36,653 nucleotides of DNA from Saprospiraceae bacterium (GCA_019634125.1 JAHQVX010000039.1:1-36653); one strand, 5' to 3'; positions 6,811 through 24,781 are shown, counted from the stretch's first letter. Program-made: numbers and translations. Notes: generated by a model from the letters alone, not told the origin.

Positions 6811-8577
6811 ATGAAAGACTTTACTAGACTGTTTGACATTTTGCATTATCAAAATGCCAACTTTCCTCAAGAGATTTGCCTTGCGGGAAAAAATCAAGGG
6901 AATTGGACCAAGTATTCAACTCAACAAGTCGTAGATGCTACGAATCAACTCAGCTTAGGCTTGATGAAATATGGCATCCAGCCTGGAGATAAAATAGGAA
7001 TAATCTCAACCAACAACCGACCAGAATGGAATTTTGTTGATTTAGCCACGTTGCAAATTGGCGCCGTAGATGTGCCGATTTATCCAACGATCAGCCCTTC
7101 GGACTATCAATACATCATGAACGATGCAAAAGTGCGTCTTGTATTCGTGTCGGATGTTGAAGTGCTCGAGAAAGTGAATTCGATTCGCGATCAAGTGCCT
7201 TCCCTCGAGAACGTATATATGTTTGATCAAGTAGATGGAGTACCGCATTACTCAGAAATTTCCAATATGGGCGACGACAGCCTTGTTGCGGAATTAGAAG
7301 CGCGTAAGGCCGCCATCGATCCGATGGAACTGGCCACTCTTATCTATACTTCTGGTACTACAGGTAAGCCTAAAGGCGTCATGCTTTCACACAATAATAT
7401 TGTGGAGAATACCAAGGCTACAACTAAAGATTTACCACTGAAAAGTGGGAATGTAGTATTAAGCTTCTTACCGCTTTGCCACATTTTTGAGCGAATGGTA
7501 ACCTATTCCTACTTAGCTAGAGGGGCTCAAATCCATTACGCGGAAAGTATTGAAACTATTGGAGATAATTTAAAAGAGGTTTCGCCGCACTTCTTTACCG
7601 CAGTGCCGAGACTTTTAGAGAAAGTATTTGAAAAGATTGTCAACAAAGGCCTCGATCTCAAAGGTGTTAAGCGTGGATTGTTTTTCTGGGCATTGGATTT
7701 AGGCATGCAGTTCGACTGGCGAGAAAAGAAAAGCTGGTGGTACAATACCAAGTTAAAAATTGCCAATAAACTCATCTTTAGTAAGTGGCGTGAAGCGCTT
7801 GGTGGACGCGTTCAAGGTATTGTAACGGGTTCTGCTCCGCTTCAGCCAAGATTGGCGAAAGTATTTTCTGCGGGTCAAATTCCTGTTCGTGAAGGCTATG
7901 GATTAACAGAAACTTCACCGGTATTGACTTATAACCGATTCCAAGATGACAATGCCATGATCGGTACAGTGGGTATTCCTTTAGAGAATGTAGAGATTAA
8001 GTTGGACACCGATGGTGAGATTTTGGCCAAAGGGCCAAATGTCATGATGGGCTATTACAACCGACCAGATGCCACCGCAGATGTGATGACTGAAGACGGT
8101 TGGTTTAGAACGGGTGATATTGGCGAAATGATAGAAGGGAAATTCCTGAAGATTACCGACCGAAAGAAACAGTTAATGAAAACTTCAAATGGTAAGTATG
8201 TCGCGCCACAACCGATTGAAGAGAAATTTAAAGAGAGTATGCTCATTGAACAGATGATGGTCGTGGCGGAAGGCAAGAAGTTTGTATCTGCGCTGATTGT
8301 ACCTTCTTTCCAGAATTTAACCGATTGGTGCGAAACGAAAGGCAAACAATTTGCCTCTATCGCTGATATGATTGGCGACGATATGGTGAAAAAGAAATTT
8401 GATGAGCTATGTGCGGAGTTCAATCCGAACTTTAGTAAGACGGAGCAAATCAAAAAGTATAAGCTCTTACCCAAAGAATTTACTGTTGAAGACGGTGAAT
8501 TAACACCAACCATGAAGGTAAAGCGTAAAATTATTACAGAGAAGTACAACGATGTAATCGAGAGTATTTACGCTTAA
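6811..8577 (+). CDS. fadD: Long-chain fatty acid--CoA ligase (AMP-dependent synthetase)
   Basis: YTSGTTGKPKG AMP-binding motif, EGYGLTET, and the DGWFRTGDIG...ITDRKK fatty acyl-CoA synthetase signature. Confidence 0.9.
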   Translation: MKDFTRLFDILHYQNANFPQEICLAGKNQGNWTKYSTQQVVDATNQLSLGLMKYGIQPGDKIGIISTNNRPEWNFVDLATLQIGAVDVPIYPTISPSDYQYIMNDAKVRLVFVSDVEVLEKVNSIRDQVPSLENVYMFDQVDGVPHYSEISNMGDDSLVAELEARKAAIDPMELATLIYTSGTTGKPKGVMLSHNNIVENTKATTKDLPLKSGNVVLSFLPLCHIFERMVTYSYLARGAQIHYAESIETIGDNLKEVSPHFFTAVPRLLEKVFEKIVNKGLDLKGVKRGLFFWALDLGMQFDWREKKSWWYNTKLKIANKLIFSKWREALGGRVQGIVTGSAPLQPRLAKVFSAGQIPVREGYGLTETSPVLTYNRFQDDNAMIGTVGIPLENVEIKLDTDGEILAKGPNVMMGYYNRPDATADVMTEDGWFRTGDIGEMIEGKFLKITDRKKQLMKTSNGKYVAPQPIEEKFKESMLIEQMMVVAEGKKFVSALIVPSFQNLTDWCETKGKQFASIADMIGDDMVKKKFDELCAEFNPNFSKTEQIKKYKLLPKEFTVEDGELTPTMKVKRKIITEKYNDVIESIYA

Positions 8578-8595
8578 TCGTTTTTAAAAAGAGTC

Positions 8596-8628
8596 AAACC
8601 ACCCCGGCTTAGCCGGGGTGGTTTTTTT
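8596..8628 (+). terminator. Rho-independent terminator
   Basis: 13-bp stem AAACCACCCCGGC-tta-GCCGGGGTGGTTT plus a T tract. Confidence 0.92.
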
Positions 8629-8639
8629 ACGTCCAATCA

Positions 8640-8669
8640 TTTATTTTACCAAACGGTTGGTCAAATAAA
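8640..8669. promoter_or_regulatory. Putative TetR operator (30-bp imperfect palindrome)
   Basis: TTTATTTTACCAAACGGTTGGTCAAATAAA is self-complementary except for two mismatched pairs and lies 43 nt upstream of the tetR gene. Confidence 0.7.
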
Positions 8670-8712
8670 AATATTTTCGCTAATTTTAAGGCCAGAATAG
8701 AGAAGTAAGTAT

Positions 8713-9291
8713 ATGCCGAAGCAGAAAACAGACCCTCAAGAAATTGTGAAATCAGCCTTAAATATCTTTCTAGAGAAAGGCTATCACAATACATCTATGG
8801 CAGATATTGCCAACGAAACAGGACTCCTTAAAGGAAGCCTATATCACCACTTTAAAGGAAAAGAAGACCTCATGAAAGCCGTTATTAGCAGTATTCATGA
8901 ATGGTATAAAAGAGAAATCTTTACCATTAAAGATGAAAAAACATTTTCCACCGATCAAAAAATCCAAGCCCTTATCAAGGCTTCGGAAGAAATCTTCTTC
9001 AATAGAAGAGGCGGGAACTTCATGACGAATATCGCCCTCGAAACATTAAACGTGGTTCCAGAGTTTACCGCTATGTTCCGGGCCTTCTTTAGAGATTGGA
9101 TCCATTGTGTGAAAACCGTCTATGCAGAAGTCTTCCCAGAAGATGAAGCAGAACAACTGGCCCACCAATCAATTTCTGAAATTGAAGGAGCTGTCGTTAT
9201 GATGGAACTCTTCAACGATAAAAACTATTTACGCAGAGCGCATAAGCGCATTTACAACCGCTTTAAATCCCTCTCTAGCGTCACTAAATAA
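8713..9291 (+). CDS. TetR/AcrR family transcriptional regulator, first gene of the beta-oxidation operon
   Basis: N-terminal HTH KGYHNTSMADIANETGLLKGSLYHHFKGKEDL. Confidence 0.95.
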   Translation: MPKQKTDPQEIVKSALNIFLEKGYHNTSMADIANETGLLKGSLYHHFKGKEDLMKAVISSIHEWYKREIFTIKDEKTFSTDQKIQALIKASEEIFFNRRGGNFMTNIALETLNVVPEFTAMFRAFFRDWIHCVKTVYAEVFPEDEAEQLAHQSISEIEGAVVMMELFNDKNYLRRAHKRIYNRFKSLSSVTK

Positions 9292-9309
9292 TTAAACACC
9301 TAAGGCTAA

Positions 9310-11715
9310 ATGAATAGAAAGATTAAAAAAGTAGCAGTTCTGGGTTCCGGAGTAATGGGATCTCGAATTGCTTGCCACTTTGCCAACATTGGACTAGATG
9401 TACTCCTTTTGGATATTGTCCCTAGAGAACTCAATGAAAAAGAGCAAGCGAAAGGATTAAGTTTAGAACATCCAGCAGTTCGAAATCGAATTGTGAATGA
9501 TTCCTTAACATTCGCCCTGAAGTCAAACCCGTCTCCAATCTACGATAAAGCATTTGCAAAGCGTATTAAGACCGGAAACTTTGACGATGATTTTTCGAAA
9601 ATTAAAGATGCTGACTGGATCATTGAAGTTGTTATCGAACGTTTAGATATCAAACAACAAATTTTTGAGAAAGTAGATGCCCTTCGAAAGCCAGGCGCTC
9701 TAGTTACTTCTAACACATCCGGTATTCCTATCGCTATGATGAGCGAAGGAAGAAGCGATGATTTTCAAAAGCACTTCTGTGGAACCCACTTTTTTAATCC
9801 ACCGCGCTATTTGAAATTATTTGAGGTTATTCCTGGCCCAAAAACAGATCAATCGGTACTCGATTTCTTCATGCATTACGGCGATCTCTACTTAGGGAAA
9901 ACTACAGTATTATGTAAAGACACTCCTGCGTTTATTGCGAATAGAGTAGGAGTCTTCAGTATGATGGCTATCATGCACACCATGAATGAAATGGGACTTA
10001 CACCAAAGCAAGTAGATTCCTTAACTGGTCCACTTACTGGCCGTCCTAAATCAGCTACCTTCAGAACAGCCGATGTAGTAGGTATTGATACACTTGCTAA
10101 AGTAGCAAAAGGTGTGGCAGATAATTGCCCGAACGATGAATCCAAAGACTTATTTGTGCTTCCAGACTACATCCACAAAATGATTGAGAATAAGTGGTTG
10201 GGCAGCAAAACCAAACAAGGGTTCTTTAAGAAAGTAAAAGATGAAACTGGAAAGAGCCAAATCTTAGGTCTAGACCTCAACGATTTGGAATACAAACCAA
10301 TCGAGAAAACCAACTTCCCAACTGTCGCTATGGCTAAGCCAATCGACGACCTTAAGGAAAGGTTAGTAGCCATCAACAAAGGTCAAGATAAAGCAGCTGA
10401 GTTCTTGAAGAAAGTGAACATGTTGGTGTTCAAATATGTTAGCTTCAGAATCCCAGAAATCTCAGATGAACTCTATCGAATCGATGAGGCCATTAAAGCT
10501 GGATTTGGCTGGGAATTAGGTCCCTTCGAAATTTGGGATACCCTAGGAGTAGAGCGTATGACTGCTAAAATGAAAGAAGCAGGCCTTGCTCCAGCAGAAT
10601 GGGTAGATGCATTTTTAGCTGCAGGTCACTCCTCGTTCTATAAAACAGAGAATGGTCAGAAAGTGTACTACGATATTCCATCTAAAACCTATAAATCCAT
10701 TCCAGGTGCTGAGGCATTTATCATCTTAGATAACCTTAGAGAACAAGCGCCAGTATGGAAGAACTCTGGAACCATTCTACATGATATTGGAGATGGCGTT
10801 CTTAACCTTGAGTTTAGAACAAAAATGAATGCCATTGGTGGGGAAGTCATTGAAGGCATCAATAAATCCATCGAACTAGCTGAGCAAGAAGGTTGGAAAG
10901 GACTAGTGATTGGAAATGACGCAGCCAACTTCTCAGCAGGTGCGAACCTGGCTATGATCTTAATGACGGCAGCTGAACAAGAATATGATGAGTTAAACTT
11001 CATGATTAAGGCTTTCCAAGACACCATGATGCGTGTCCGGTACTCTTCCATTCCTGTAGTTACTGCTCCTCATGGGTTGGCACTTGGAGGCGGTTGCGAA
11101 ATGAGTATGCATGCCGATAAAGTACAAGCATCTGCAGAAACTTACACTGGGCTGGTTGAATTTGGAGTAGGACTTTTACCTGCTGGTGGTGGTACGAAAG
11201 AAACTACGAAACGAGTAGCCGAAAGCATTGGTGAAGGCGATGTGGTGATCAATAAGCTTCGAGAAGCTTTTGTAAATATCGCGACAGCCAAAGTAGCTAC
11301 TTCCGCTTATGAAGCCATGAATATGGGACTCTTTAGAAAAGGAATTGATGAAGTTACGCTGAACCAAGACCGCTTAATCGCAGATGCTAAAGCTTCTGTG
11401 CTGGAATTGTACAACGCTGGTTATACCATGCCAACACCTGCCATGGTGAAAGTGCAAGGTAGAAGTGCATTAGGGACATTGATGGTTGGTACACATGCTT
11501 TCCGCCTAGGAAATTATGCCAGTGACCACGATCGATTGATCGCTGATAAAATTGCTTATGTGATGTGTGGAGGTGATTTAACCATGCCACAAGAAGTTAG
11601 TGAGCAATACCTGTTGGATTTAGAACGTGAAGCGTTTTTAAGTCTTTGTGGAACACAAAAGACGTTAGAACGAATCCAGCACATGCTGCAAAAAGGGAAA
11701 CCATTAAGAAACTAA
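9310..11715 (+). CDS. fadN: 3-hydroxyacyl-CoA dehydrogenase / enoyl-CoA hydratase (FadN-type architecture)
   Basis: GSGVMG Rossmann motif, SNTSG and THFFNPPRY; C-terminal crotonase domain (FSAGANL, GGGCE, VEFGVGLLPAGGG). Confidence 0.92.
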   Translation: MNRKIKKVAVLGSGVMGSRIACHFANIGLDVLLLDIVPRELNEKEQAKGLSLEHPAVRNRIVNDSLTFALKSNPSPIYDKAFAKRIKTGNFDDDFSKIKDADWIIEVVIERLDIKQQIFEKVDALRKPGALVTSNTSGIPIAMMSEGRSDDFQKHFCGTHFFNPPRYLKLFEVIPGPKTDQSVLDFFMHYGDLYLGKTTVLCKDTPAFIANRVGVFSMMAIMHTMNEMGLTPKQVDSLTGPLTGRPKSATFRTADVVGIDTLAKVAKGVADNCPNDESKDLFVLPDYIHKMIENKWLGSKTKQGFFKKVKDETGKSQILGLDLNDLEYKPIEKTNFPTVAMAKPIDDLKERLVAINKGQDKAAEFLKKVNMLVFKYVSFRIPEISDELYRIDEAIKAGFGWELGPFEIWDTLGVERMTAKMKEAGLAPAEWVDAFLAAGHSSFYKTENGQKVYYDIPSKTYKSIPGAEAFIILDNLREQAPVWKNSGTILHDIGDGVLNLEFRTKMNAIGGEVIEGINKSIELAEQEGWKGLVIGNDAANFSAGANLAMILMTAAEQEYDELNFMIKAFQDTMMRVRYSSIPVVTAPHGLALGGGCEMSMHADKVQASAETYTGLVEFGVGLLPAGGGTKETTKRVAESIGEGDVVINKLREAFVNIATAKVATSAYEAMNMGLFRKGIDEVTLNQDRLIADAKASVLELYNAGYTMPTPAMVKVQGRSALGTLMVGTHAFRLGNYASDHDRLIADKIAYVMCGGDLTMPQEVSEQYLLDLEREAFLSLCGTQKTLERIQHMLQKGKPLRN

Positions 11716-11719
11716 AAAA

Positions 11720-12910
11720 ATGAACAACATGTCAAACGAAGCATATATAGTAGCAGGGTATCGGTCTGCTGTTGGAAAAGCAGGAAAAGGAAGTTTCCGG
11801 TTTTATCGTCCCGATGATCTTGGAGCAGATGTTATCCAATATTTATTAAGTAAAGTCCCAAACCTTGATCCAGAACGCATCGATGATGTTATTGTAGGAA
11901 ATGCGATGCCTGAGGCAGAGCAAGGTCTCCAAGTAGGGAAAATGATCGCCCTCAAAGCAGGTTTGCCAGAAAACGTTGCTGGTGTAACCGTAAATCGTTT
12001 TTGTGGTTCAGGCGTAGAGACTATTGCCATGGCTACCGCAAAGATTAAAGCCGGAATGGCAGATTGTATCATTGCAGGTGGCGCAGAAAGCATGAGCCTA
12101 GTGCCTATGAGTGGTTGGAGACCTATCCTGAATTATGAAATTGCCAAAGAACATCCAGAGTATTATTTAGGAATGGGTTTAACTGCGGAAGAAGTAGCTA
12201 GTGACTATAATATTTCTAGAGAAGATATGGATGAGTTCTCTTTTCAATCACACATGAAAGCCGCTAAAGCTATCGATGAAGGGAAATTCAAAAGCCAGAT
12301 CGTGCCGGTTGAAGTGGAAGAAGTATTTGTGAAAGACGGAAAACGTCAGACCAAAAAATATACGGTAGATACAGACGAAGGCGTACGAAGAAGTACAACT
12401 ACAGCTGCATTATCAAAACTTCGCCCAGTATTTAAAGTAGGTGGAACAGTTACAGCAGGAAATGCTTCTCAGACTTCGGATGGAGCCGCTTTCGTAATTG
12501 TTATGAGTGAGCGTATGGTGAAAGAGATGAATCTAGAGCCGATTGCTCGATTAGTAACTTGTACCTCTGTAGGTGTAGATCCAAGAGTAATGGGAATTGG
12601 TCCTGTTAAGGCGATTCCAAGAGCTTTAGAATTGGCTGGTCTTTCTTTGAACGATATAGAGCTATTTGAGTTAAACGAAGCCTTTGCTTCGCAAAGCCTT
12701 GCCGTGATCCGCACTGCCGGACTCAACCCAGATATCGTCAATGTGAACGGAGGCGCTATCGCCCTCGGACACCCACTTGGCTGTACTGGAGCAAAGCTCA
12801 CCGTACAGCTCATCAACGAAATGAAACTCCGTAACAACAAATACGGAATGGTTACTGCTTGTATCGGTGGCGGTCAAGGGATTGCCGCAATTATTGAAAA
12901 CCTGAATTGA
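11720..12910 (+). CDS. fadA: Acetyl-CoA C-acyltransferase (3-ketoacyl-CoA thiolase)
   Basis: VNRFCGSG, NEAFA, GHPLGCTG and CIGGGQG thiolase motifs. Confidence 0.95.
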   Translation: MNNMSNEAYIVAGYRSAVGKAGKGSFRFYRPDDLGADVIQYLLSKVPNLDPERIDDVIVGNAMPEAEQGLQVGKMIALKAGLPENVAGVTVNRFCGSGVETIAMATAKIKAGMADCIIAGGAESMSLVPMSGWRPILNYEIAKEHPEYYLGMGLTAEEVASDYNISREDMDEFSFQSHMKAAKAIDEGKFKSQIVPVEVEEVFVKDGKRQTKKYTVDTDEGVRRSTTTAALSKLRPVFKVGGTVTAGNASQTSDGAAFVIVMSERMVKEMNLEPIARLVTCTSVGVDPRVMGIGPVKAIPRALELAGLSLNDIELFELNEAFASQSLAVIRTAGLNPDIVNVNGGAIALGHPLGCTGAKLTVQLINEMKLRNNKYGMVTACIGGGQGIAAIIENLN

Positions 12911-12953
12911 GTAGCCATCAGCTAAAAAATAAACAAAAACTAACATCTAAATA

Positions 12954-14741
12954 ATGGAAACAACAATTGAGAAAAAAGCCGTCCTCAAAGGAGGAGAGTT
13001 CTTAGTGAAAGAATCAACGGCACACGACATCTTCACGCGAGAAGACCTTACAGAAGAACAACTCATGTTTGGCGATGCAACAAAGCAATTCGTAGACTCA
13101 CGCATCTTACCGAACGCTGAAGATATTGAAGAATTAAAAGAAGGATTAACGCCTTCATTACTCGAAGAACTAGGCGAGTTAGGCGTTTTAGGTGCCGGCC
13201 TTCCAATGGAATTCAACGGCCAAGGACTCGACTTCATTACCGACACTGTACTCTCTGAAGAGATCGGTAAATCTGGTTCCTTCGGCGTTTCTGTAGCTGC
13301 CCATACAGGAATTGGCACACTTCCAATTTACTATTACGGAACAGAAGCCCAAAAAGCAAAGTACCTTCCAGGTTTGGCAACAGGTCAACTCAAAGCCGCA
13401 TACTGTTTAACAGAGCCTAGCTCAGGTTCAGATGCCTTAGGCGCTAAATCAACCGCTGTGTTAGACGGGGATGAGTGGGTGATCAATGGCCAAAAAATGT
13501 GGATCACTAATGGAGGATTCGCAGATATTTTCATCGTTTTCGCACAAGTAGATGGCGATAAATTCACAGGATTTATTGTACCTGGCGACTTAGACGGGAT
13601 CACACGAAATGCAGAAGAAAAGAAATTAGGAATTAAAGGATCATCTACACGTCAGATCTTCTTCGAGAACGTTCGTGTCCCGAAAGACTACGTTTTAGGT
13701 GAAATTGGAAAAGGCCATAAAATTGCTTTCAACGTATTGAATATTGGCCGTTACAAGCTTTGTGCTATGGTAATGGGTGGAGCAAAACGTGCCATCGGTG
13801 TTTCTGCCAACTACACCAACGAAAGAAAGCAATTCGGGAAGAATTTACACGAATTCGGTGCCATCAAGCATAAATTGGCGGAAATGGCCATCAAAACATT
13901 TGCTACAGATAGCGCCACGTATAGAACAGCAGGCTACATCAACGACTTAATCCAACAGTTGTTAGAAGAGGGAAAAACGCCTGCAGAAGCGAAATTAATC
14001 GCTGCAGAAGAGTACAGCATTGAGTGTGCATTATTGAAAGTACTCGGTTCAGAAACCTTAGACTACGTAGTGGATGAGAATGTTCAAATCCACGGTGGAA
14101 TGGGCTATAGTGAGGAAGGTCATGCCGCTAGAGCGTACCGAGATTCTCGAATCAACCGAATCTTTGAAGGTACGAACGAAATCAACCGATTATTAAGCAT
14201 CGGAATGATGATGAAGAAAGGCATGAAAGGCGAGATTGACTTGCTTGGACCTGCTATGGCAGTTGGTAAGGAGTTGATGAGCGTACCAAGCTTTGGTAGT
14301 GGACCAGAAGGCTTTTTCGCAAAAGAAAAGCAAGCCATCGTGAATGCGAAGAAAGCAGGCTTATTAGTAGCTGGTGCAGCTGCACAGAAGTTTATGCAAC
14401 ACTTAGAAGAACAACAAGAAATCATGATGTACTTATCGGATATGTTAATCGACGTATTCGCTGCAGAAAGTACCTTGCTTCGTGTAGAGAAAATGGTAGC
14501 TGCCAAAGGCGAAGAGGCATGTGCATTGGAAATTGATATGGCACGTACTTACTTAGTAGATGCGTTAGATCGAATCAACTCCAACGGAAGAAGCGCAGTA
14601 GCTGGTTTTGCAGAAGGCGATGAGATGCGTATGATGTTAATGGGCTTGAAGCGATTCACTAAGTTTGAGCCGGTGAACACCATTGCAGCCCGCCGCAGAA
14701 TTGCTGACCACATCGTGGAGCAAAATGCTTATACTTTCTAG
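12954..14741 (+). CDS. Acyl-CoA dehydrogenase (long form with C-terminal domain)
   Basis: YCLTEPSSGSD, GQKMWITNG, ERKQFG, QIHGGMGY and RIFEGTNEIN motifs. Confidence 0.95.
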   Translation: METTIEKKAVLKGGEFLVKESTAHDIFTREDLTEEQLMFGDATKQFVDSRILPNAEDIEELKEGLTPSLLEELGELGVLGAGLPMEFNGQGLDFITDTVLSEEIGKSGSFGVSVAAHTGIGTLPIYYYGTEAQKAKYLPGLATGQLKAAYCLTEPSSGSDALGAKSTAVLDGDEWVINGQKMWITNGGFADIFIVFAQVDGDKFTGFIVPGDLDGITRNAEEKKLGIKGSSTRQIFFENVRVPKDYVLGEIGKGHKIAFNVLNIGRYKLCAMVMGGAKRAIGVSANYTNERKQFGKNLHEFGAIKHKLAEMAIKTFATDSATYRTAGYINDLIQQLLEEGKTPAEAKLIAAEEYSIECALLKVLGSETLDYVVDENVQIHGGMGYSEEGHAARAYRDSRINRIFEGTNEINRLLSIGMMMKKGMKGEIDLLGPAMAVGKELMSVPSFGSGPEGFFAKEKQAIVNAKKAGLLVAGAAAQKFMQHLEEQQEIMMYLSDMLIDVFAAESTLLRVEKMVAAKGEEACALEIDMARTYLVDALDRINSNGRSAVAGFAEGDEMRMMLMGLKRFTKFEPVNTIAARRRIADHIVEQNAYTF

Positions 14742-14777: not shown

Positions 14778-14807
14778 AACCCCCTCGGCTTTGCCGAGGG
14801 GGTTTTC
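14778..14807 (+). terminator. Rho-independent terminator of the beta-oxidation operon
   Basis: 12-bp stem AACCCCCTCGGC-ttt-GCCGAGGGGGTT followed by TTC. Confidence 0.88.
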
Positions 14808-14835
14808 TAATTCTAAAAAAGTCTAACTTTCCCCT

Positions 14836-15777
14836 ATGAAATGGCTGAAACGTATTGCGAAAGTCTTGCTCGGACTCTTTATCTTTTTACTCGTCGCCAT
14901 CTTCATTCTTTTACATGCCATTCGGTTTTATCCTACACCTAAAAAGCTAGAAAAACAATTCACCAAGCAAGGCTTTGATGCGCCCAGTATGTCTATAATA
15001 GACACGGAAAATGGCGCACTCACTTACGTAGATAACCAAGTCAAGAGTGCAGCCCCAACTGTGGTTTTTATTCATGGCAGCCCGGGCAGTTCCCAAGATT
15101 TTCGCCTCTTTTTTCAAGATCCAGAGCTGGCCAACTTTCACCTCATTTCCGTCAACCGACTAGGCTATGGCAAAGAAGATTATGGCCAGAACGTAGTCGA
15201 TTTGAAACAACAAGCCGAGGCCATTGCGCAAGTGCTTTCTCAGCTTCCAGAAGATCGGCAAGTCATTTGGGTAGGGCATAGCTATGGCGGGGCTCCGGCT
15301 GCTATGTGTGCGGCCTTAAACCCAGAACAAACGGCTGGACTCATCCTCGCAGCTGCCCCAATGGATCCAGAACATGAACACATGTTCTGGTTCAATCCAC
15401 TCTTCAATTCAAAGCCCGTTCGCTTCTTTATGCCCAAAATGATCAACATGGCTAGCGATGAAAAAATGACCCATGAGGTGGAATTACGAAAGGTAGAAAG
15501 CTATTGGGCGAAAATTACATGCCCGATCACAGTACTCCAAGGCGATAAAGACTTTCTCTCCCCAATGGAAAATCTAGTTTATGCCCAGAAAATGTACGAG
15601 AACAGTGCTCAACTCATTACCAGGGAGCTAGAAGACCAAGATCATTTCTTCCCATTTAGCGGAAAACAAGTACTCAAGGAAACGATTTTGGATATGATTA
15701 GTCCGCCTGAGCTACCAAGTAATCCGAGTACGTCATTTGATTTTTTCCCCCTTCCCGAACCACAAGTGTCGTGCTAA
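14836..15777 (+). CDS. Membrane-anchored alpha/beta hydrolase
   Basis: N-terminal transmembrane segment, HGSPG oxyanion motif, GHSYGG nucleophile elbow, QGDKD acid and DHF histidine. Confidence 0.9.
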   Translation: MKWLKRIAKVLLGLFIFLLVAIFILLHAIRFYPTPKKLEKQFTKQGFDAPSMSIIDTENGALTYVDNQVKSAAPTVVFIHGSPGSSQDFRLFFQDPELANFHLISVNRLGYGKEDYGQNVVDLKQQAEAIAQVLSQLPEDRQVIWVGHSYGGAPAAMCAALNPEQTAGLILAAAPMDPEHEHMFWFNPLFNSKPVRFFMPKMINMASDEKMTHEVELRKVESYWAKITCPITVLQGDKDFLSPMENLVYAQKMYENSAQLITRELEDQDHFFPFSGKQVLKETILDMISPPELPSNPSTSFDFFPLPEPQVSC

Positions 15778-16378
15778 TGGTTTGAACCAACGGGTGATCC
15801 AAAACAATAGGCACTTCAAATGAGGTGTTTTGCATAAAGTCTAAGACCTTATTCGGTTGGTGCTTAGAAAGCCATTCCTCAAACTGTACTTGCTTCTGCC
15901 ATCGAATGTCTGCATTGTATAACGTGGAGGAAGATCGAATAAAAGGCTTCCATTCCAAAGATCGTATATACTTTCTCGTGCCATCCCATACCAGTTCTAG
16001 AATGCGTTGTGTTCCATTGTGCTGAATGAAGAGTTGGGTAAAAGGCTCCACACCGTCTAAGTGCACCTGCTCTAGAAATTCGTCGTGGCCAGAGAAATCT
16101 AAAACTTCAAGCATGATTTTCCCGCGGCTCCTATCGTAAGGTGGCTGGTGTTTGTGCTTTTCAAAACCTCCATTAAATAGGAAAACGGTTTCTTCATCAT
16201 TTGTGTACACCCAAGTCCCTCTTTTGGAACCATCAACAGGCATTACGACCGATCGTTTATTTCGCTTCGTAGTTTCAGGAGGGAGTGCCCGAGCTCTTTT
16301 CGGGCTTTCATCTCGATTATGGGCCAATACAAAATCATCGGAATGATTCGAGGTAGGAATGAAAACAATTGTACACAT
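15698..16378 (-). CDS. NRDE / TANGO2 family protein (Ntn-hydrolase-like fold)
   Basis: N-terminal MCT (Cys2), NRDE motif, GTW, SRG and EPFT. Confidence 0.92.
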   Translation of the reverse strand: MCTIVFIPTSNHSDDFVLAHNRDESPKRARALPPETTKRNKRSVVMPVDGSKRGTWVYTNDEETVFLFNGGFEKHKHQPPYDRSRGKIMLEVLDFSGHDEFLEQVHLDGVEPFTQLFIQHNGTQRILELVWDGTRKYIRSLEWKPFIRSSSTLYNADIRWQKQVQFEEWLSKHQPNKVLDFMQNTSFEVPIVLDHPLVQTISTTLVVREGGKNQMTYSDYLVAQAD

Positions 16379-16476
16379 GTAAGAAATAATCCGCTTTTGC
16401 TACTAACTGGATTAGCTGTTAATTGGAGACAATTTTACAGTTTTAATTTTCTATTTTTAGATTCTGGAACGAAATA

Positions 16477-16983
16477 ATGATAAAATCAACGCTACAAAAC
16501 ACTATCAATCAGCTGGATGAATTGGTGGAGCAATTGACGCCGGAAGATTATAAACGCAAAGAAGAGATGTTGTCTGGATCTTCTATAGGCATGCATGTTC
16601 GACACATCATTGAGTTTATTGAATGTGTACTTCAAGGCCAAGAGTCTGGAGTGATTTGCTACGATGATCGCCAACGTGATGAAATCCTTCAAACAGATAC
16701 CCAAGAGGCCTCTCGAAGAATGCGCATGTGCCATCGAGCCATTCAAACCTGCAACTCCAACCAAATTATTGACCTGGCAGGCAGTTATTGTGTAGAAAAT
16801 AGCAAGCCTTATTCAGTAAAGTCTTCCGTGGAGCGGGAGTTAGCCTATAATATTGAACATGCCATTCACCATATGGCCATCATAAAAATCGCGGTAAAGC
16901 AATTATTCCCTTATGTAACCATTCCGGCGCATTTTGGGGTAGCGCATTCTACTATTAGCTATGAAGCTTCTCAATCAGCTTAA
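16477..16983 (+). CDS. DinB/YfiT superfamily protein
   Basis: SIGMHVRHIIEF, YDDRQRD and EHAIHHMA metal-binding histidine pattern. Confidence 0.88.
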   Translation: MIKSTLQNTINQLDELVEQLTPEDYKRKEEMLSGSSIGMHVRHIIEFIECVLQGQESGVICYDDRQRDEILQTDTQEASRRMRMCHRAIQTCNSNQIIDLAGSYCVENSKPYSVKSSVERELAYNIEHAIHHMAIIKIAVKQLFPYVTIPAHFGVAHSTISYEASQSA

Positions 16984-17998
16984 AGTCATTCATCACCGCC
17001 TTACTCACGCAGAGTATTGGCCATTCTGGATCTTTTATGGTCCATTTATCCCGGTATTTTTATACTATGGCTTGCGGAATGGAAGTATTTTCCATTTCCT
17101 AGCTGTAAACCCAGGCATTAAGAACAGTGGTTGTTTTAACTTTTCCAAGTATTCAGTTATTGAACAACTTCCGCAACAGTATTTACCCAAAGGCATGTTA
17201 TTGTCTAAAGCAGAACGTCACTTATTTCAGCCTGAAAGGGAAGGATATTCGTATCCGTTCATTGTAAAGCCAGATCGAGGAAATCGAGGAAGGGGTGTGG
17301 AACTCGTTGAGAATGAAGAACAACTCCAAAAAGCTTTACAGAAGGACTACGATTTTATCATTCAAGAGTACATCGATTATCCCTTGGAATTTGGTGTTTT
17401 TTATTACCACAATTCAAAAACTGGGGAAAAGGGCATTACAGGAATTACGAGTAAAGACTTCCTTCAAATTGTAGGAGATGGCAAAAGTACTTTTGAGCAA
17501 CTTTTGCGAAAAAATCCCCGTTCTAAGCCGAATTTGGATCATTTTCAGCAAAAATTTGCTGAAAATTGGCATAAAATCCCCGAAAATGGCGAAAAAATCA
17601 TTGTGGAGGAAATTGGCAATCACAGTCGAGGAACCTGTTTCTTAGATGCAAGTTTTTTACAGAACACCGCTATTGAAGAACGCTTTTTTGATTTGGCCAG
17701 CCACATCGACGGCTTTTATTGGGGAAGGTTCGATGTAAAAGCAGCTACAAATGAAGATTTAGCCACTGGTGCGCATTTGAAGATCTTAGAAGTGAATGGC
17801 GGAAGTAGTGAACCTTCCCATATGTTTGATCCAGGCTATAAGTGGGTTGATATGGCGCGATTTATTCTTCAGCACCTGAAGCTACATTATGGAGTAGTAA
17901 AGGCCAACATTGATAATGGAGCCGATGTGCCTTCGTTTAAAACCTTCTACAAAGAAGTAAAGCAATACTTTTCATTGAAAGAAATGCAGATCACTTAG
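16961..17998 (+). CDS. ATP-grasp fold ligase of unknown substrate (D-Ala-D-Ala-ligase-like fold, not a true Ddl)
   Basis: PFIVKPDRGNRGRGV, IIQEYI, GRFDVK and LEVNG (ExN) motifs; hydrophobic EYWPFWIFYGP N-terminus; overlaps dinB by 23 nt. Confidence 0.85.
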   Translation: MKLLNQLKVIHHRLTHAEYWPFWIFYGPFIPVFLYYGLRNGSIFHFLAVNPGIKNSGCFNFSKYSVIEQLPQQYLPKGMLLSKAERHLFQPEREGYSYPFIVKPDRGNRGRGVELVENEEQLQKALQKDYDFIIQEYIDYPLEFGVFYYHNSKTGEKGITGITSKDFLQIVGDGKSTFEQLLRKNPRSKPNLDHFQQKFAENWHKIPENGEKIIVEEIGNHSRGTCFLDASFLQNTAIEERFFDLASHIDGFYWGRFDVKAATNEDLATGAHLKILEVNGGSSEPSHMFDPGYKWVDMARFILQHLKLHYGVVKANIDNGADVPSFKTFYKEVKQYFSLKEMQIT

Positions 17999-18001
17999 AC
18001 T

Positions 18002-18029
18002 TGTAAGGTCTAGGTTGTTCGGTTGTCTA
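18002..18029 (+). promoter_or_regulatory. Putative ECF-sigma promoter TGTAAG-N16-TGTCTA
   Basis: Same layout as 3227-3254; ends 18 nt upstream of the DoxX ATG. Confidence 0.45.
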
Positions 18030-18047
18030 TATCCAAAAAAATATCTC

Positions 18048-18431
18048 ATGAAAAATGCAGGAACCATCTTAGAATGGGTGTTAAGAATTGCTATCGCGGC
18101 TATTTTGTTACAAACTTTACCCTTTAAGTTCGGTGCTGATCCACAATCAGTCGAATTATTTACAAAGCTTGGCGCAGAACCCTTTGGAAGAATTGGAACG
18201 GGAGTCATTGAGTTAATTGCCTCGATTCTATTATTTATTCCACGAACAACTTGGGCCGGCGCAGGCTTGGCTTTAGGAACTATGTTAGGCGCAATCGTTG
18301 GCCACTTAACGGTATTGGGTGTAGATTATCCGGAGGGAAGTGGTTTGTTTTATATGGCGGTGGCCGTGTTCATAATGAGTGCTATCCTATTGTTTCGAAA
18401 TAAGGCGCACATCCCATTCTTGAAGAAGTAA
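18048..18431 (+). CDS. DoxX family membrane protein
   Basis: LRIAIAAILLQTLPFKF, GRIGTGVIELIAS and MLGAIVGHL; four hydrophobic segments; ATG at 18048 is preferred to the upstream TTG. Confidence 0.88.
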   Translation: MKNAGTILEWVLRIAIAAILLQTLPFKFGADPQSVELFTKLGAEPFGRIGTGVIELIASILLFIPRTTWAGAGLALGTMLGAIVGHLTVLGVDYPEGSGLFYMAVAVFIMSAILLFRNKAHIPFLKK

Positions 18432-18548: not shown

Positions 18549-18791
18549 ATGATTCATTTAGCAAATAACTGCGGCAATTGCGGAAGTCTTCAAACCAATA
18601 GTACTTGTGGTGTTCATCAGGTACAAGTGAGCCAAGATTTAACTTGTAACCAATTTAACATGCGCGAGAGTTTAATCCCCGGTATGGATTGCACTTCGTG
18701 TGGACGAAAAGATGACGGTTCATGTCCGCATCCAGGGAAGGCTGCAGCGGGAATGCGTTGTCACATGTGGGCACCGAATGCTCAGGCTTAA
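18549..18791 (+). CDS. Small Cys-rich protein with two CxxC-x7/8-C-x11/12-CxxF/W units (putative Fe-S or metal binding)
   Basis: Eight Cys in two regular units; A-rich leader typical of Bacteroidota starts; fills an otherwise empty gap; its stop overlaps the glnS stop (TTAA). Confidence 0.75.
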   Translation: MIHLANNCGNCGSLQTNSTCGVHQVQVSQDLTCNQFNMRESLIPGMDCTSCGRKDDGSCPHPGKAAAGMRCHMWAPNAQA

Positions 18792-20516: not shown

Positions 20517-21146
20517 TCATTTTCCGAATACTGCTTTTAGATGTTGCCATTCGCGTTTGACCATCAACTTTAACCTTCGGGGGAATTCCAATTTCCGTTT
20601 GCTAGAAGCATTGTGGCTTTGTTGGAAGGCTTCTAATGCTTTCTCCAGCGATCCTTCTGCTTGTATGGATGACCAAAAAATGGGGAAGTCGGTACGGATC
20701 GTTTCCAGGTGAATGGTTTGTTGATTCCGTTTGTTGCTTATAAAGTGTGCAATATTGGCATTTACGGTATCGATATAATCATAGCAGAGTTGGAGTCGAT
20801 CTGCTGGGCTGAGGTTTTGCGGCGGAGTCATTCTGATGCCTTCGGAGAAGGCATCTATTACGCTAGATGGCTGGAAGTAGCGCTTCATAAAACTTTGAGC
20901 TACGGCTTCTCGGTCGCGAATCAAGTGCACATAAAAGGCTTCATCGCCAAAGTGTGCATGGAGTTGACCAAGGTGCCAGCTGAGTCGGTTATCAGATTCA
21001 ATGTGTTGATCGGCATAGTCGAATCTTCCTTGGCCAAGTTCCTTGGCCAAGGTCTCATGCCCCGAACTGAAATTCGTGATATACTTACACGCTTCCACAA
21101 TGCTTGTAGAACCGCAGCGACCCGTACTTAAGATAAAGACCCGCAT
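20517..21146 (-). CDS. Sulfotransferase-like P-loop protein
   Basis: FILSTGRCGSTS resembles the 5'-PSB loop; YVHLIRDREAVAQSF resembles the 3'-PB motif; HE follows the first helix. Confidence 0.7.
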   Translation of the reverse strand: MRVFILSTGRCGSTSIVEACKYITNFSSGHETLAKELGQGRFDYADQHIESDNRLSWHLGQLHAHFGDEAFYVHLIRDREAVAQSFMKRYFQPSSVIDAFSEGIRMTPPQNLSPADRLQLCYDYIDTVNANIAHFISNKRNQQTIHLETIRTDFPIFWSSIQAEGSLEKALEAFQQSHNASSKRKLEFPRRLKLMVKREWQHLKAVFGK

Positions 21147-22087: not shown

Positions 22088-24781
22088 TTACTGCTTTAGC
22101 AGTGTTTCTGAATGAAGGACTTGGCCCGTTGCCCCCACCCATTTTAAATAATATATTCCCGGTCTTATAGATGGTGTTATTGTAAATGTGTCGCCAGAAG
22201 TAACTCCTTCCTGTGTAAACACAATATTCCCAAATTGATCGATCAGGTAAACCGTACTATTCACCTCTTTTGATGTATCAGGAAGTGCAACAACTAACTC
22301 TGAAGAAAATGGGTTTGGATATGCATAAACCGCTTTAGATTCTTTTTCTTCCACCAGCATTTCTCGATTCGAACTAGAGCCCGTTATTTCGATATTTGTG
22401 ACATTATATACTTCGGAAGTAACACTTGTAGCTCCATTTATAATCACTTCTAGGGTGTTGCCAGAAATATTACATTGCTCGAAGTTGGCCGACTGGAAGG
22501 AGTCTGTTTTAGAATATAGGGTTTGTGTAGCCCCTCCATTTACACGATACAATATGTCTATGTAGTCACTACTTTCCATATTGCCCAGTCCTTCAGCAGT
22601 TAAGGACAGACATACAGACGCAGCACAAGAAATATCCACCACGCCCAAACTAATACTAACCGCTTCATTGGAAATACTCACATCAGGGCCTGACCATGGA
22701 ACATCACAGTTGTTTCCAGTGCTACCACCTGTTACCTTAGTGAACGTAAACGATTCCCATGTTAAAGCACTTGATGGGGATACAAATTTCACTTGACCCG
22801 AACTGTTCACCTGGAGCCTACTGTAGGCGTTTGGCCCATCAGGTAAAGTCATGAAATAGCTGCCATTTAAATAACCTTCTTCAAATTCATAATAAGTATA
22901 ACTTCCACTTGAACTGGTGGCTTGCATGTCGGCATTCGGGGAATTATCGGTTCTTAAACGAGGTAAAGCTCCTCCTGCAGCCCGTTGTACATGCCAAAAA
23001 CCATTGCCTTTAGCTACAAATTTCCATTCTACGTTTGCCCCAGTTGTGTTGGTAGATGTGGTAAATGCATCTTCACTGGAACCAGTTGCTCCTAATCGAA
23101 GGTTATGATGCGGAGAATCAATGTAATAAACAGCATTTGGATCCGGGGTGAAAGTAGATCCTGTTCCTCCTTGACCATTTCCATCTCCACGAATTTCCAC
23201 ATTATAAACATTATAGACTTCAGAAGTCACACTAGTGGCCCCATTTACGATCACTTCCAAGGTGTTTCCAGAAATCCCGCACTGTTCAAAGTTGGCGGTT
23301 GAGAAGGAATCGGTCTTAGAATACAACGTTTGTTGCGCGCCGCCATTTACTTTATAATAGATGTTGAGGTAATCCGAGCTTTCCATATTCCCTAAACCTT
23401 CGGCTGTTAACGACAGACATACTTGATTTTCGCAAGAAATATCAACTACACCCAAGCTAACCGTTACGCTTTCATTAGATATGCTCACGTCATCTCCAGC
23501 CCAGGGTAAATTACAATTGTTCGGATTGCTATTCCCCGATGTTGTAAATCCTTGCCCTTCGCCATCGTTGTATGCTGTTGCAATGGTTTGATCATCACAT
23601 TTCGCTCTCACTTGCCATCTATATGCTGTATTATTCGATAAGCCGGTTAGGTTGTAGAATGCTTTCCCCCCCGAAACTGTAAAATCGCCTTCTGATTCTC
23701 GTAAGGTAGTTTTATACGTCCAGTTAGTGCTTCCTGCCAGAGCATACCGAATGTTATAATGATTGAAGCTATCGTCAAAGTTCCAGCTTAATGTTGCACT
23801 AGTTTGACCTACATTAGATACTGTTCGAGATCCAGGCACATTGGCAGAACAACCTCCTCCTGTTGGTGGGTTGCCCCCAGAACCAAAGTCGCCGTCGTGG
23901 TCTACTACTAAATCATAAACCACCACTTCTCCATAATTATCTGGATCATCGGTGTCATTACCTTCCTGACTTGGATTACTTTGTGTGTAATTTCCAGCTT
24001 TGAAGTAAGCATCCCCATAATTAATATCCATGAGAACTGCATTGCCGCCGTCGGTCACTCTATAATTGGATGCGTTTCCACTTGTAAAGGCATTTTTTAG
24101 ATTCCCATCTTCACTGTAATAAGCATAGTGTTTCCCGTCAATCACTTCAAAGATGACTTCATGGACAGTTCCAAGGGAATAGTTGTTTTTTATGGTGACT
24201 TCGCTTCTTAGTTGGCCTCCGTTAAAATCAAGAAATAGGCGTTGATTCTCTAGACGCACAACCATAGCATCGTCAATGCCTTCGGATTTATTACCGTGAA
24301 TTTGTGTGGCAACTAAATGCGGCTTGTTGATTGGTAAGTGCGTGATCGCTTGTTTAACGTAAATGACATGATGACCTGAAGTCGTCCAATAAACATCTAC
24401 ATCACCATCTACCTCACGCTCTCTTAATTCAGAACGAACATTACTAGAGTTAGGGGTGGTGCCGTTGTCGGAGCGAATGGGGGCTCTGAAAACAATGCCG
24501 TTACCGGCATTGTTTACATAATAAAATTCTTTGCGGTTATTAGCTACGTCGTTACATAGATCCTTTTCTTCATCGCCTGTGGGAAAGGTAATCTTCCATT
24601 GTTCGCACCCGGGGTAGGTAACCCCACCTTGGGTATTTGAATTCCATTGGTTCAATAAATCTTGCGGGGTCTGGCCATGGCTCATTAGAGCAAATCCAAG
24701 CGTGCAAAAGCAAAAGCAAAACAGCTTAAATGTCAAACGTAGAATGGATGATTTTTTGGGGGAAGTAAACATAAAATGCAT
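22088..24781 (-). CDS. Multimodular PL7 alginate lyase: signal peptide, PL7, FN3, module A, beta-trefoil-like domain, module A', T9SS C-terminal sorting domain
   Basis: PL7 motifs RSELRE, QIH and YFKAGNYTQ; FN3 pattern (ATLSW...YNIRY...LTGLSNNTAYRWQVRA); YPNPF...GIYYLK CTD. Confidence 0.9.
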   Translation of the reverse strand: MHFMFTSPKKSSILRLTFKLFCFCFCTLGFALMSHGQTPQDLLNQWNSNTQGGVTYPGCEQWKITFPTGDEEKDLCNDVANNRKEFYYVNNAGNGIVFRAPIRSDNGTTPNSSNVRSELREREVDGDVDVYWTTSGHHVIYVKQAITHLPINKPHLVATQIHGNKSEGIDDAMVVRLENQRLFLDFNGGQLRSEVTIKNNYSLGTVHEVIFEVIDGKHYAYYSEDGNLKNAFTSGNASNYRVTDGGNAVLMDINYGDAYFKAGNYTQSNPSQEGNDTDDPDNYGEVVVYDLVVDHDGDFGSGGNPPTGGGCSANVPGSRTVSNVGQTSATLSWNFDDSFNHYNIRYALAGSTNWTYKTTLRESEGDFTVSGGKAFYNLTGLSNNTAYRWQVRAKCDDQTIATAYNDGEGQGFTTSGNSNPNNCNLPWAGDDVSISNESVTVSLGVVDISCENQVCLSLTAEGLGNMESSDYLNIYYKVNGGAQQTLYSKTDSFSTANFEQCGISGNTLEVIVNGATSVTSEVYNVYNVEIRGDGNGQGGTGSTFTPDPNAVYYIDSPHHNLRLGATGSSEDAFTTSTNTTGANVEWKFVAKGNGFWHVQRAAGGALPRLRTDNSPNADMQATSSSGSYTYYEFEEGYLNGSYFMTLPDGPNAYSRLQVNSSGQVKFVSPSSALTWESFTFTKVTGGSTGNNCDVPWSGPDVSISNEAVSISLGVVDISCAASVCLSLTAEGLGNMESSDYIDILYRVNGGATQTLYSKTDSFQSANFEQCNISGNTLEVIINGATSVTSEVYNVTNIEITGSSSNREMLVEEKESKAVYAYPNPFSSELVVALPDTSKEVNSTVYLIDQFGNIVFTQEGVTSGDTFTITPSIRPGIYYLKWVGATGQVLHSETLLKQ
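22379..22714 (-). repeat. Copy 2 of a 112-aa intragenic module
   Basis: NNCDVPWSGPDVSISNE...NIEITG; ungapped alignment to copy 1 gives about 90/112 identical residues (hand count). Confidence 0.95.
23186..23521 (-). repeat. Copy 1 of a 112-aa intragenic module
   Basis: NNCNLPWAGDDVSISNE...NVEIRG, 336 nt, same length as copy 2. Confidence 0.95.

Follow-up and report, generated by a model that had tools for sequence, protein, structure and literature searches.

The closest described system to the one proposed here is cerilipin synthesis, in which an ATP-dependent transfer of taurine onto ornithine lipid has been recorded, with the gene given as unknown (PMC12971839). The same review describes OlsI, an alpha/beta hydrolase that acts as an O-acyltransferase. 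In bacteria, hypotaurine and taurine can be made by a known route of cysteine dioxygenase (CDO) and CSAD (bioRxiv 10.1101/2024.03.02.583032, citing Agnello 2013). TANGO2 is described as an Ntn (N-terminal nucleophile) hydrolase of the Cys type, of unknown substrate, with Cys2, Asn25, Arg26, and Asp27 proposed as catalytic (PMC13044924), and its relative HtpA, found in a different gene context, has been described as a heme carrier (PMC10470608). Here, we investigated five adjacent genes at positions 14836–18431 of a 36,653-nucleotide stretch of DNA from a Saprospiraceae bacterium (GCA_019634125.1 JAHQVX010000039.1:1-36653). Referred to as the window, this stretch corresponds to contig C23; the genome measures 2.2 Mb and is 83% complete. 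The genes encode an ATP-grasp ligase, an NRDE/TANGO2-family protein (NRDE), a DinB-fold protein, a DoxX membrane protein, and an alpha/beta hydrolase, and they form a real, widely conserved bacterial module. From sequence and genome context, we propose a reading that we place only a little short of even: the ligase would couple an aminolipid, at its carboxylate, with hypotaurine or taurine, and NRDE and DinB would supply this amine by way of pantetheine and cysteamine.

The five genes form a conserved module

A search of 301 Bacteroidota genomes gave 74 ligase matches, 67 of them at E<1e-15; the 7 weak ones were dropped before counting. We inspected 49 loci, mostly from Bacteroidota (9 from the ligase search and 40 chosen from Bacteroidota genomes). 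The neighbors found in them were DinB (29), NRDE (19), a YHS protein (19), a LysE-type protein (18), DoxX (16), and Crp/Fnr (9). Across the genome set, the DinB type, detected with a profile built from ligase neighbors, is present in 54/301 genomes, 52 of which are ligase positive, and the hydrolase type is present in 34/301, of which 32 are ligase positive. The genes also fuse. Among 12 long proteins scanned, the ligase is joined to NRDE in P0089, P0198, and P0248, to LysE in P0193, and to DedA in P0215, P0221, and P0266, and P0253 combines hydrolase, DedA, and ligase. A search for longer ligase homologs returned 2 matches only, and one metagenome scan found nothing. The preliminary description of this DNA had suggested that these families co-occur in other Bacteroidota and named a gene-neighborhood analysis as the check; that analysis shows the families co-occurring and fusing with the ligase in related genomes. 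Because the genes travel together and fuse, they are not scattered independently, the pattern that would have spoken against a module.

The hydrolase was at one point considered a bystander, as BLAST clustering placed it in 0/49 of these mostly Bacteroidota loci. This was overturned by the co-occurrence in 32/34 genomes, by the best matches of the protein, and by the Bdellovibrionota loci. Its best BLAST matches are the module hydrolases of L170 (1e-36), L171 (Bdellovibrionota), and L084 (7e-25, Paracoccus). It lies inside the module in 11/30 Bdellovibrionota loci (E<1e-20 for 8, with two of these as profile seeds) and in two Paracoccus loci, and it is unlinked to the ligase in 15/15 other Bacteroidota genomes inspected. 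Other carriers of the module include Paracoccus denitrificans PD1222 (PDEN_RS24485), Salinivibrio kushneri, and Azospirillum lipoferum 4B. With module hydrolases as its best matches, all five genes, hydrolase included, belong to one conserved module, as was first suggested.

The usual partner of DoxX is a secreted YHS protein, and the two are fused in L167 (2397–3173) and L178; the latter locus also encodes a DedA-acyltransferase (VTT-acyltransferase) fusion. A G[WY]CA motif is present in 47/51 YHS proteins. The window genome has an ortholog of the LysE-type partner, unlinked, on contig C133 (L176:4989–5627). A 13-nt overlap couples DinB to NRDE in L043 (5815–7001) and in many relatives; the window has lost this coupling. 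A seemingly conserved C-terminal Cys of DinB (CAQ) was rejected as a shifted reading of the NRDE start within this overlap. In L045, L056, L073, and L080, sigma-factor-like and small anti-sigma-like genes, labeled by sequence appearance, adjoin the module together with a DM13 gene; the small gene has no Pfam match.

CDO and CSAD-like genes stand where DinB and NRDE are absent

CDO and CSAD make hypotaurine from cysteine, and CDO-type and CSAD-like genes were found beside the ligase in Bdellovibrionota, where 28/401 genomes are ligase positive; we examined 30 loci from them. In L038, the ligase is followed by CDO and then by a pyridoxal phosphate-dependent decarboxylase. A CDO-type gene is present in 21 of the 30 loci, with a decarboxylase in 20 of these; one locus (L175) has DinB and NRDE, and 8 have neither pair. 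The ligase is fused to CDO in L190, L192, and L193, as well as in P0229. The best PDB match of the L038 decarboxylase is human CSAD (2jis) at 1e-91, versus 4e-81 for GAD, and 16/20 decarboxylases have the CSAD stretch NQLFSG, the Phe of which is reportedly a selectivity residue. The L167 CDO matches mammalian CDO at 6e-22, and Pfam CDO_I, with its H-x-H metal motif, is matched by the stand-alone proteins of L038 and L167 and by P0229. Built from 3 Pfam-confirmed and 4 flavobacterial CDOs, a custom CDO profile detects 20/21 CDO-type genes at E<=2e-6, of which 2 had served as seeds. In a 121-genome sample of Bdellovibrionota, a CSAD-like gene occurs in 8/9 ligase-positive versus 6/112 ligase-negative genomes, assuming the same draw of genomes across searches. 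YHS is kept in 19 of the 30 loci, DoxX in 17, DedA in 25, and the Ols-like genes in 6 each, so we regard these loci as the same module. We lean modestly toward hypotaurine or taurine as the amine used by the ligase.

The two pairs of genes do not occur together in the loci counted. Among 169 loci, DinB or NRDE occurs in 85, CDO in 21, and both in 0; for the 126 loci of at least 7 kb, the counts are 65, 21, and 0. The DinB type and the TANGO2 family are each present in 1/28 ligase-positive Bdellovibrionota genomes, and it is the same genome (G359), which is without CSAD; its ligase is sister to that of the CDO-linked L173 (support 97). Both main branches of the ligase tree contain CDO-linked ligases, seven of them in the branch of the window ligase (whose exact place is unresolved), with 6 label changes forced, and CDO-linked ligases have the same invariant residues as DinB-linked ones. 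Since DinB and NRDE are absent where CDO and the decarboxylase are present, the pattern fits the supply of a substrate better than the erasure of a product. The first proposal for this locus, a write/erase system that ligates and removes a group, is no longer the leading reading, as DinB and NRDE are absent from the CDO and decarboxylase loci and, in Bdellovibrionota, from the genomes.

The module is linked to membrane aminolipid genes

The 49 loci include 11 hydrolase-DedA-ligase fusions, and every one has an OlsB-like GNAT5 gene (PF13444) and an OlsA-like acyltransferase gene (PF01553) upstream of it. We also took the best 80 of 478 metagenome matches, from a query biased toward the fused type; the 33 of these loci with at least 8 kb contain DedA (29), GNAT5 of the OlsB/OlsF-like type (25), DinB (22), NRDE (21), and DoxX (17). 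Three Vibrionaceae loci have the order DedA-ligase-DinB-NRDE-YHS-DoxX followed by a GNAT5 gene, which is OlsF-sized in two. In V. cholerae, vca0646 is an ornithine-lipid synthase gene ending an operon of four genes without an assigned function (bioRxiv 10.1101/2024.12.11.627999 and 10.1101/2024.09.23.614608). A membrane-associated substrate had been suspected for the ligase, and the DedA and LysE fusions and the OlsB and OlsA neighbors make a membrane lipid likely; we consider the acceptor of the ligase to be probably a lipid.

The ligase belongs to an uncharacterized ATP-grasp family

The ligase (16961–17998, + strand; 345 aa) is identified as an ATP-grasp amide ligase of an uncharacterized family by partial ATP-grasp matches, fold, invariant residues, and fusions. 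Pfam ATP-grasp families match the central motif only (TTL, 1e-8), and no NCBIfam family scores above its cut-off. The AlphaFold model is confident (pLDDT 95). In a fold search against the PDB, 495 of the best 500 matches have E<=0.001, and all matches listed are CphA, GshAB, or Ddl-type ligases. The closest profile and fold matches are cyanophycin synthetases, GshAB, and Ddl, with 13–20% identity, E values of 1e-10 to 1e-6, and a TM score of about 0.5. Invariant residues are K63, K103, E143, K165, R256, D258, E277, N279, and E284. The nucleotide-binding Lys (K103) and the metal-binding Asp and E-x-N (D258, E277, and N279) are invariant in 41/41 sequences and align with the CphA2 motif region. 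By fold and catalytic residues, the protein is a member of the ATP-grasp superfamily, and at no more than 20% identity to solved structures, it does lie outside all characterized families. Several specific labels were rejected: Ddl (TIGR01205 at 17.6 bits against a cut-off of 245.65, with PF07478 below cut-off), cyanophycin synthetase/GshAB (TIGR02068 at 19.8 bits against 850, for a 345-aa single domain), RimK (below cut-off), and tubulin-tyrosine ligase (the TTL match spans residues 62–142 only).

The N-terminal segment EYWPFWIFYGP, which had been offered as a hydrophobic feature fitting a membrane substrate, is real and conserved (E18, W20, P21, Y26, and P28), but it is not a transmembrane helix. 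The best 19-residue hydropathy is 1.09, too low for a membrane span. The AlphaFold model has a helix at residues 22–39. As the aromatic segment follows the DedA domain in the fusions, we infer a role at the membrane surface.

The family comprises 863 clusters at 50% identity (E<=1e-30), and its named members are mostly Bacteroidota. Close homologs of the window ligase (P0004–P0011) are 46–75% identical to it, and further homologs occur in Acetobacteraceae (Komagataeibacter and Gluconacetobacter). In a single case, P0001, the ligase is fused to a D-amino-acid-oxidase-like domain. In Komagataeibacter (L083:5010–7942), the ligase adjoins an S-adenosylmethionine (SAM) methyltransferase and an iron-containing redox enzyme, and in Variovorax (L085:5550–8806), it adjoins a similar methyltransferase and an OlsB-like gene. 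These methyltransferase and redox neighbors may be a third route of amine supply.

The partner proteins keep their catalytic residues

The family labels first given to NRDE, DinB, DoxX, and the hydrolase are upheld, as all four score above the Pfam cut-off. NRDE (15698–16378, − strand) is an NRDE/TANGO2-family putative Ntn amidase with Cys2 (Pfam TANGO2, 9e-13; 49.3 bits against a cut-off of 22.6 for PF05742). The protein begins Met-Cys, so Cys2 is at the N-terminus as proposed, and C2, R22, D23, E24, N69, and R85 are invariant in 59/59 module NRDEs, including most of the N21-R22-D23-E24 motif, which is present. Four otherwise conserved positions are changed in the window protein (G53, R162, H182, and R195). 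A phmmer search of the PDB with NRDE gave nothing significant. A role in heme trafficking was rejected: no heme genes are among the conserved neighbors inspected, and heme binding is called non-specific in PMC13044924.

DinB (16477–16983, + strand; Pfam DinB, 2e-8) is a DinB-fold metalloprotein with a three-His site (H43, H128, and H132), and R42, H43, R65, R120, E121, H128, H131, and H132 are invariant in 27/27 proteins. Its model (pLDDT 96) has the four-helix DinB/YfiT fold with the three-His site and matches 2f22, 3dka, and 1rxq. To characterized bacillithiol and mycothiol S-transferases, it has 13–15% identity and Foldseek E values of 0.01–0.02, and we do not place it among them; a profile search of the PDB gave a best E of 0.09. 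Through weak matches (E about 0.5–1.2), the fold is also seen in EgtB and OvoA, sulfoxide synthases that use O2, and this, together with the three-His site, makes thiol oxygenation by DinB plausible.

The hydrolase (14836–15777, + strand; Pfam Abhydrolase_1, 7e-16) is membrane-anchored, with an N-terminal hydrophobic helix (hydropathy 3.0), and is of the HGSPG...GHSxG...D...HFxP type. DoxX (18048–18431, + strand; Pfam DoxX, 1e-5) has an ATG start and an alternative longer TTG start at 18015.

Proposed mechanism

ATP-grasp enzymes build amide bonds by way of an acyl phosphate. In the proposed scheme, an N-acyl amino-acid lipid would receive hypotaurine or taurine from the ligase at its free carboxylate, giving a sulfur-tipped membrane aminolipid. 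Pantetheine is the simplest amide that releases decarboxylated cysteine. NRDE is predicted to hydrolyze pantetheine, or an oxidized version of it, and thereby liberate cysteamine or hypotaurine, in parallel with the second animal route (see below), and DinB, as a predicted iron-dependent thiol oxygenase, would stand in for CDO; if DinB and NRDE replace CDO and CSAD, they should yield the same amine. DedA or LysE would then move the lipid product across the membrane, and YHS with DoxX would set the oxidation state of the sulfur outside, DoxX being predicted to carry out a redox step on the sulfur head group. The hydrolase, a predicted acyltransferase or deacylase for the aminolipid, would add or remove an ester-linked acyl chain, either by acylation as in OlsI or by deacylation. 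We hold the oxygenase role of DinB tentatively, and the pantetheine-type hydrolase role of NRDE, whether the product is cysteamine or hypotaurine, is rather doubtful. The window genome has a CoaBC-like gene (by motif only). In worms, TANGO2 mutants have lower coenzyme A (CoA) and are partially rescued by pantothenate and cysteamine, and pantetheine hydrolysis is named as a hypothesis for TANGO2, both in a poster abstract (PMC11268012).

A number of observations weigh against this scheme. A single phylum (Bdellovibrionota) is the source of every CDO-linked locus whose origin is known, a test of independent pairs, which could not have reached significance, was not significant (median p 0.5 and 1), and the sole Bdellovibrionota locus with DinB and NRDE (L175, in G359) has a split ligase open reading frame (ORF). 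In Bacteroidota, 14/15 ligase-positive, DinB-negative genomes have no CSAD-like gene. Pfam CDO_I fails to match 4/4 fused CDO-like domains tested as well as that of L174, all of which match the custom CDO profile only, and the decarboxylases beside the three ligase-CDO fusions read NQLYGG, closer to GADL1. Free-thiol dioxygenase activity is also not known for any DinB protein. For NRDE, genomes G055 and G191 hold the CDO and decarboxylase pair and a divergent NRDE elsewhere in the genome, so NRDE is not strictly exclusive genome-wide; loci of family f29 have DinB without NRDE, and a canonical TANGO2 is found elsewhere in 36/36 f29 genomes, DinB-less ones included. The ligase-positive genomes G111, G171, and G215 likewise have an NRDE-less locus and a canonical TANGO2 elsewhere, and a TANGO2 gene is found in 0/7 DinB-less f2 genomes. 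DinB is the tighter stand-in for CDO, and the role of NRDE is less certain.

The lipid part of the scheme also meets difficulties. GNAT5 and DedA lie beside the ligase in 0/38 non-fused loci (37 Bacteroidota and 1 Bdellovibrionota). The window genome, at its 83% completeness, has no PF13444, DedA, YHS, or CDO match and no GH3-type motif match that would point to its lipid acceptor. The window ligase itself is on a long branch with Phe at the conserved Glu61. Finally, among the 120 matches listed of 1376 to the Komagataeibacter ligase, most without a name, there is no Gluconobacter, the genus of the cerilipin transferase.

Alternative explanations

An unlikely alternative retains the write/erase idea with an ordinary amino acid. 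The ligase would turn glycine or ornithine lipids, by extending them, into di- or tripeptide lipids (Gly-Ser and Gly-Ser-Orn), NRDE would remove the residue in the manner of bile salt hydrolase, and CDO and CSAD would reflect a lineage-specific change of substrate. Gly-Ser and Gly-Ser-Orn lipids are indeed present in Chitinophaga (PMC8433624), section 10 of the aminolipid review names no serine-adding enzyme (PMC12971839), and TANGO2 is similar to bile salt hydrolase and to acid ceramidase (PMC13044924). The closest folds to the ligase extend peptide C-termini, and the NRDE-ligase fusions and the D-amino-acid-oxidase-like fusion in P0001 would suit this explanation too. It leaves unexplained, however, why DinB and NRDE are absent where CDO and CSAD are present and why YHS and DoxX are partners, and it sits poorly with a tree in which CDO- and DinB-linked ligases are interleaved and share the same invariant residues. 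Moreover, the ligase is patchy (12/16 in family f2), whereas the dipeptide lipid was found in 23/25 Chitinophaga metabolomes (PMC8433624).

That the product is instead soluble seems quite improbable to us. Here, a GshAB-like ligase would make a small sulfur peptide, such as taurine or cysteamine conjugated to a gamma-glutamyl or acyl group, which DinB would transfer, LysE would export, and DoxX and YHS would recycle, with the lipid genes merely co-regulated neighbors. The profile and fold similarity of the ligase to GshAB, the DinB fold matches to bacillithiol and mycothiol S-transferases, and the G[WY]CA motif kept in 47/51 YHS proteins are all consistent with such a product, as are LysE in place of DedA in 18/49 loci, Crp/Fnr or peroxiredoxin genes nearby in some loci, and the finding of no N-acyltransferase in the 83% complete window genome. 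Against it are the fusions of the ligase to DedA and to the membrane-anchored hydrolase, the VTT-acyltransferase fusion in L178, the tight coupling to OlsB-, OlsA-, and OlsF-like genes in distant lineages, and the conserved aromatic N-terminal helix of the ligase. Least likely of all is that the family works as we propose and the window copy has diverged or is decaying, being rearranged, without YHS and DedA, and possibly changed in substrate. The gene order in the window is rearranged, the ligase has its long branch and Glu61-to-Phe change, four conserved NRDE positions differ, no YHS, DedA, or PF13444 was found in the genome, and the only other genome of the bacterial family that was found lacks the ligase and hydrolase. 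Yet all five window ORFs are intact with their catalytic residues, the five inspected among the 46–75% identical homologs P0004–P0011 carry the same Glu61 substitution, and the LysE-type ortholog is on another contig of a genome that is 17% incomplete. We keep the transfer of hypotaurine or taurine onto an aminolipid as the leading reading.

Locus organization and surrounding genes

The five ORFs are contiguous and in the place first claimed for them, with spacings that are exact by ORF coordinates. DinB and the ligase overlap by 23 nt, and NRDE and DinB diverge across a 98-nt gap (16379–16476) that is AT-rich (71%) and is a presumed divergent promoter; a sigma-70 promoter scan gave 9 sites, no more than chance (8.9 expected). 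The hydrolase converges on NRDE as described, with a tail-to-tail overlap of 80 nt, a length that the preliminary description left out. Because hydrolase homologs stop near residue 290, the overlap is likely a non-conserved tail.

Directly upstream on the + strand (6811–14741) is a fatty-acid degradation run encoding an acyl-CoA ligase, TetR, 3-hydroxyacyl-CoA dehydrogenase/enoyl hydratase, thiolase, and acyl-CoA dehydrogenase. A GC hairpin with a T tail, not listed by the motif scan, lies between this run and the hydrolase (~14780–14808). A Cys-rich 80-aa ORF directly follows DoxX (18549–18791, + strand); neither Pfam nor NCBIfam matches it, and tblastn finds no counterpart in the 49 related loci. 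Farther downstream are a 209-aa ORF without a Pfam match (20517–21146, − strand), the start of which resembles the 3'-phosphoadenosine 5'-phosphosulfate (PAPS)-binding motif of sulfotransferases, and an alginate lyase with an fn3 domain and a type IX secretion tail (22088–24781, − strand). Elsewhere in the window genome (G000), a 951-aa ORF (L002, C121:17898–20750) is a weak ligase match; its size and motif suggest a cyanophycin synthetase. A family-level search gave one other genome, which is without the module and lacks both the ligase and the hydrolase.

Significance

We found no published account of this gene combination in a search that left subscription papers and supplements outside its scope, and none of the papers listed connects, in its title or the start of its abstract, taurine lipids with the ligase family, DinB, or NRDE. 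The ligase family, with its 863 clusters, is a concrete candidate for the orphan ATP-dependent taurine transfer gene (PMC12971839). The exchange of NRDE and DinB for CDO and CSAD is genome-context evidence for a pantetheine-hydrolase role, which we found in print only as a poster hypothesis (PMC11268012). TANGO2 is mutated in a severe human disease that responds to vitamin B5 (PMC13044924). In its full extent, the proposal would be that the ligase is the gene family behind a taurine transferase orphaned since 1978, with widespread and overlooked (hypo)taurine-tipped lipids; that DinB and NRDE form an undescribed CoA-breakdown route to hypotaurine, interchangeable with CDO and CSAD; and that TANGO2-family proteins are pantetheine-type amidases that free cysteamine and pantothenate. 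We consider it unlikely that all of this holds. If it did, it would explain the benefit of vitamin B5 in human TANGO2 deficiency and would offer a bacterial complementation assay for patient variants of TANGO2. Two open questions, the taurine transferase gene and the TANGO2 substrate, become directly assayable.

Comparison with known systems

In Gluconobacter cerinus, the taurine transferase for cerilipin (tauro-ornithine lipid) carries out the same reaction as that predicted here, forming an amide between taurine and a carboxylate on an aminolipid head group. Its acceptor is ornithine lipid, whereas the acceptor in the window lineage may be glycine or another aminolipid. In structure, the ligase has the GDG insertion and the K/D/E-x-N catalytic set in common with the G domain of CphA1 and CphA2 and with the ATP-grasp domain of GshAB/GshF. 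Unlike these proteins, to which its identity is at most 20%, it stands alone with an aromatic N-terminal helix, without the cyanophycin synthetase N and M domains or a glutamate-cysteine ligase domain, and it has other neighbors. Among the aminolipid pathways OlsB/OlsA, OlsF, GlsB/GlsA, and OlsH/OlsI, genes similar to OlsB, OlsA, and OlsF flank the module in many relatives, and none is in the window. The known tailoring enzymes OlsC, OlsD, OlsE, and OlsG hydroxylate or methylate, and none is an ATP-grasp ligase.

For the supply of the amine, the CDO-CSAD route is physically present within the module in Bdellovibrionota as CDO- and CSAD-like genes, and the NRDE and DinB pair is predicted to mirror the animal route of pantetheinase (vanin) and cysteamine dioxygenase. 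Vanin has a nitrilase fold and cysteamine dioxygenase is a cupin, folds unrelated to those of NRDE and DinB, so the proposed route would be convergent. Human TANGO2 and Shewanella HtpA (SO0126) belong to the same Pfam family as the module NRDE, in which Cys2 and the NRDE motif align with the proposed TANGO2 catalytic residues; the module NRDE is divergent, with a Pfam E of about 1e-12 versus 1e-75 for canonical bacterial TANGO2. Lastly, MprF is an aminoacyl-phosphatidylglycerol synthase fused to a flippase that uses aminoacyl-tRNA, a GNAT fold, and a phospholipid. The DedA- and LysE-fused ligases follow the same design logic, a head-group ligase joined to a translocator, with no homology implied.

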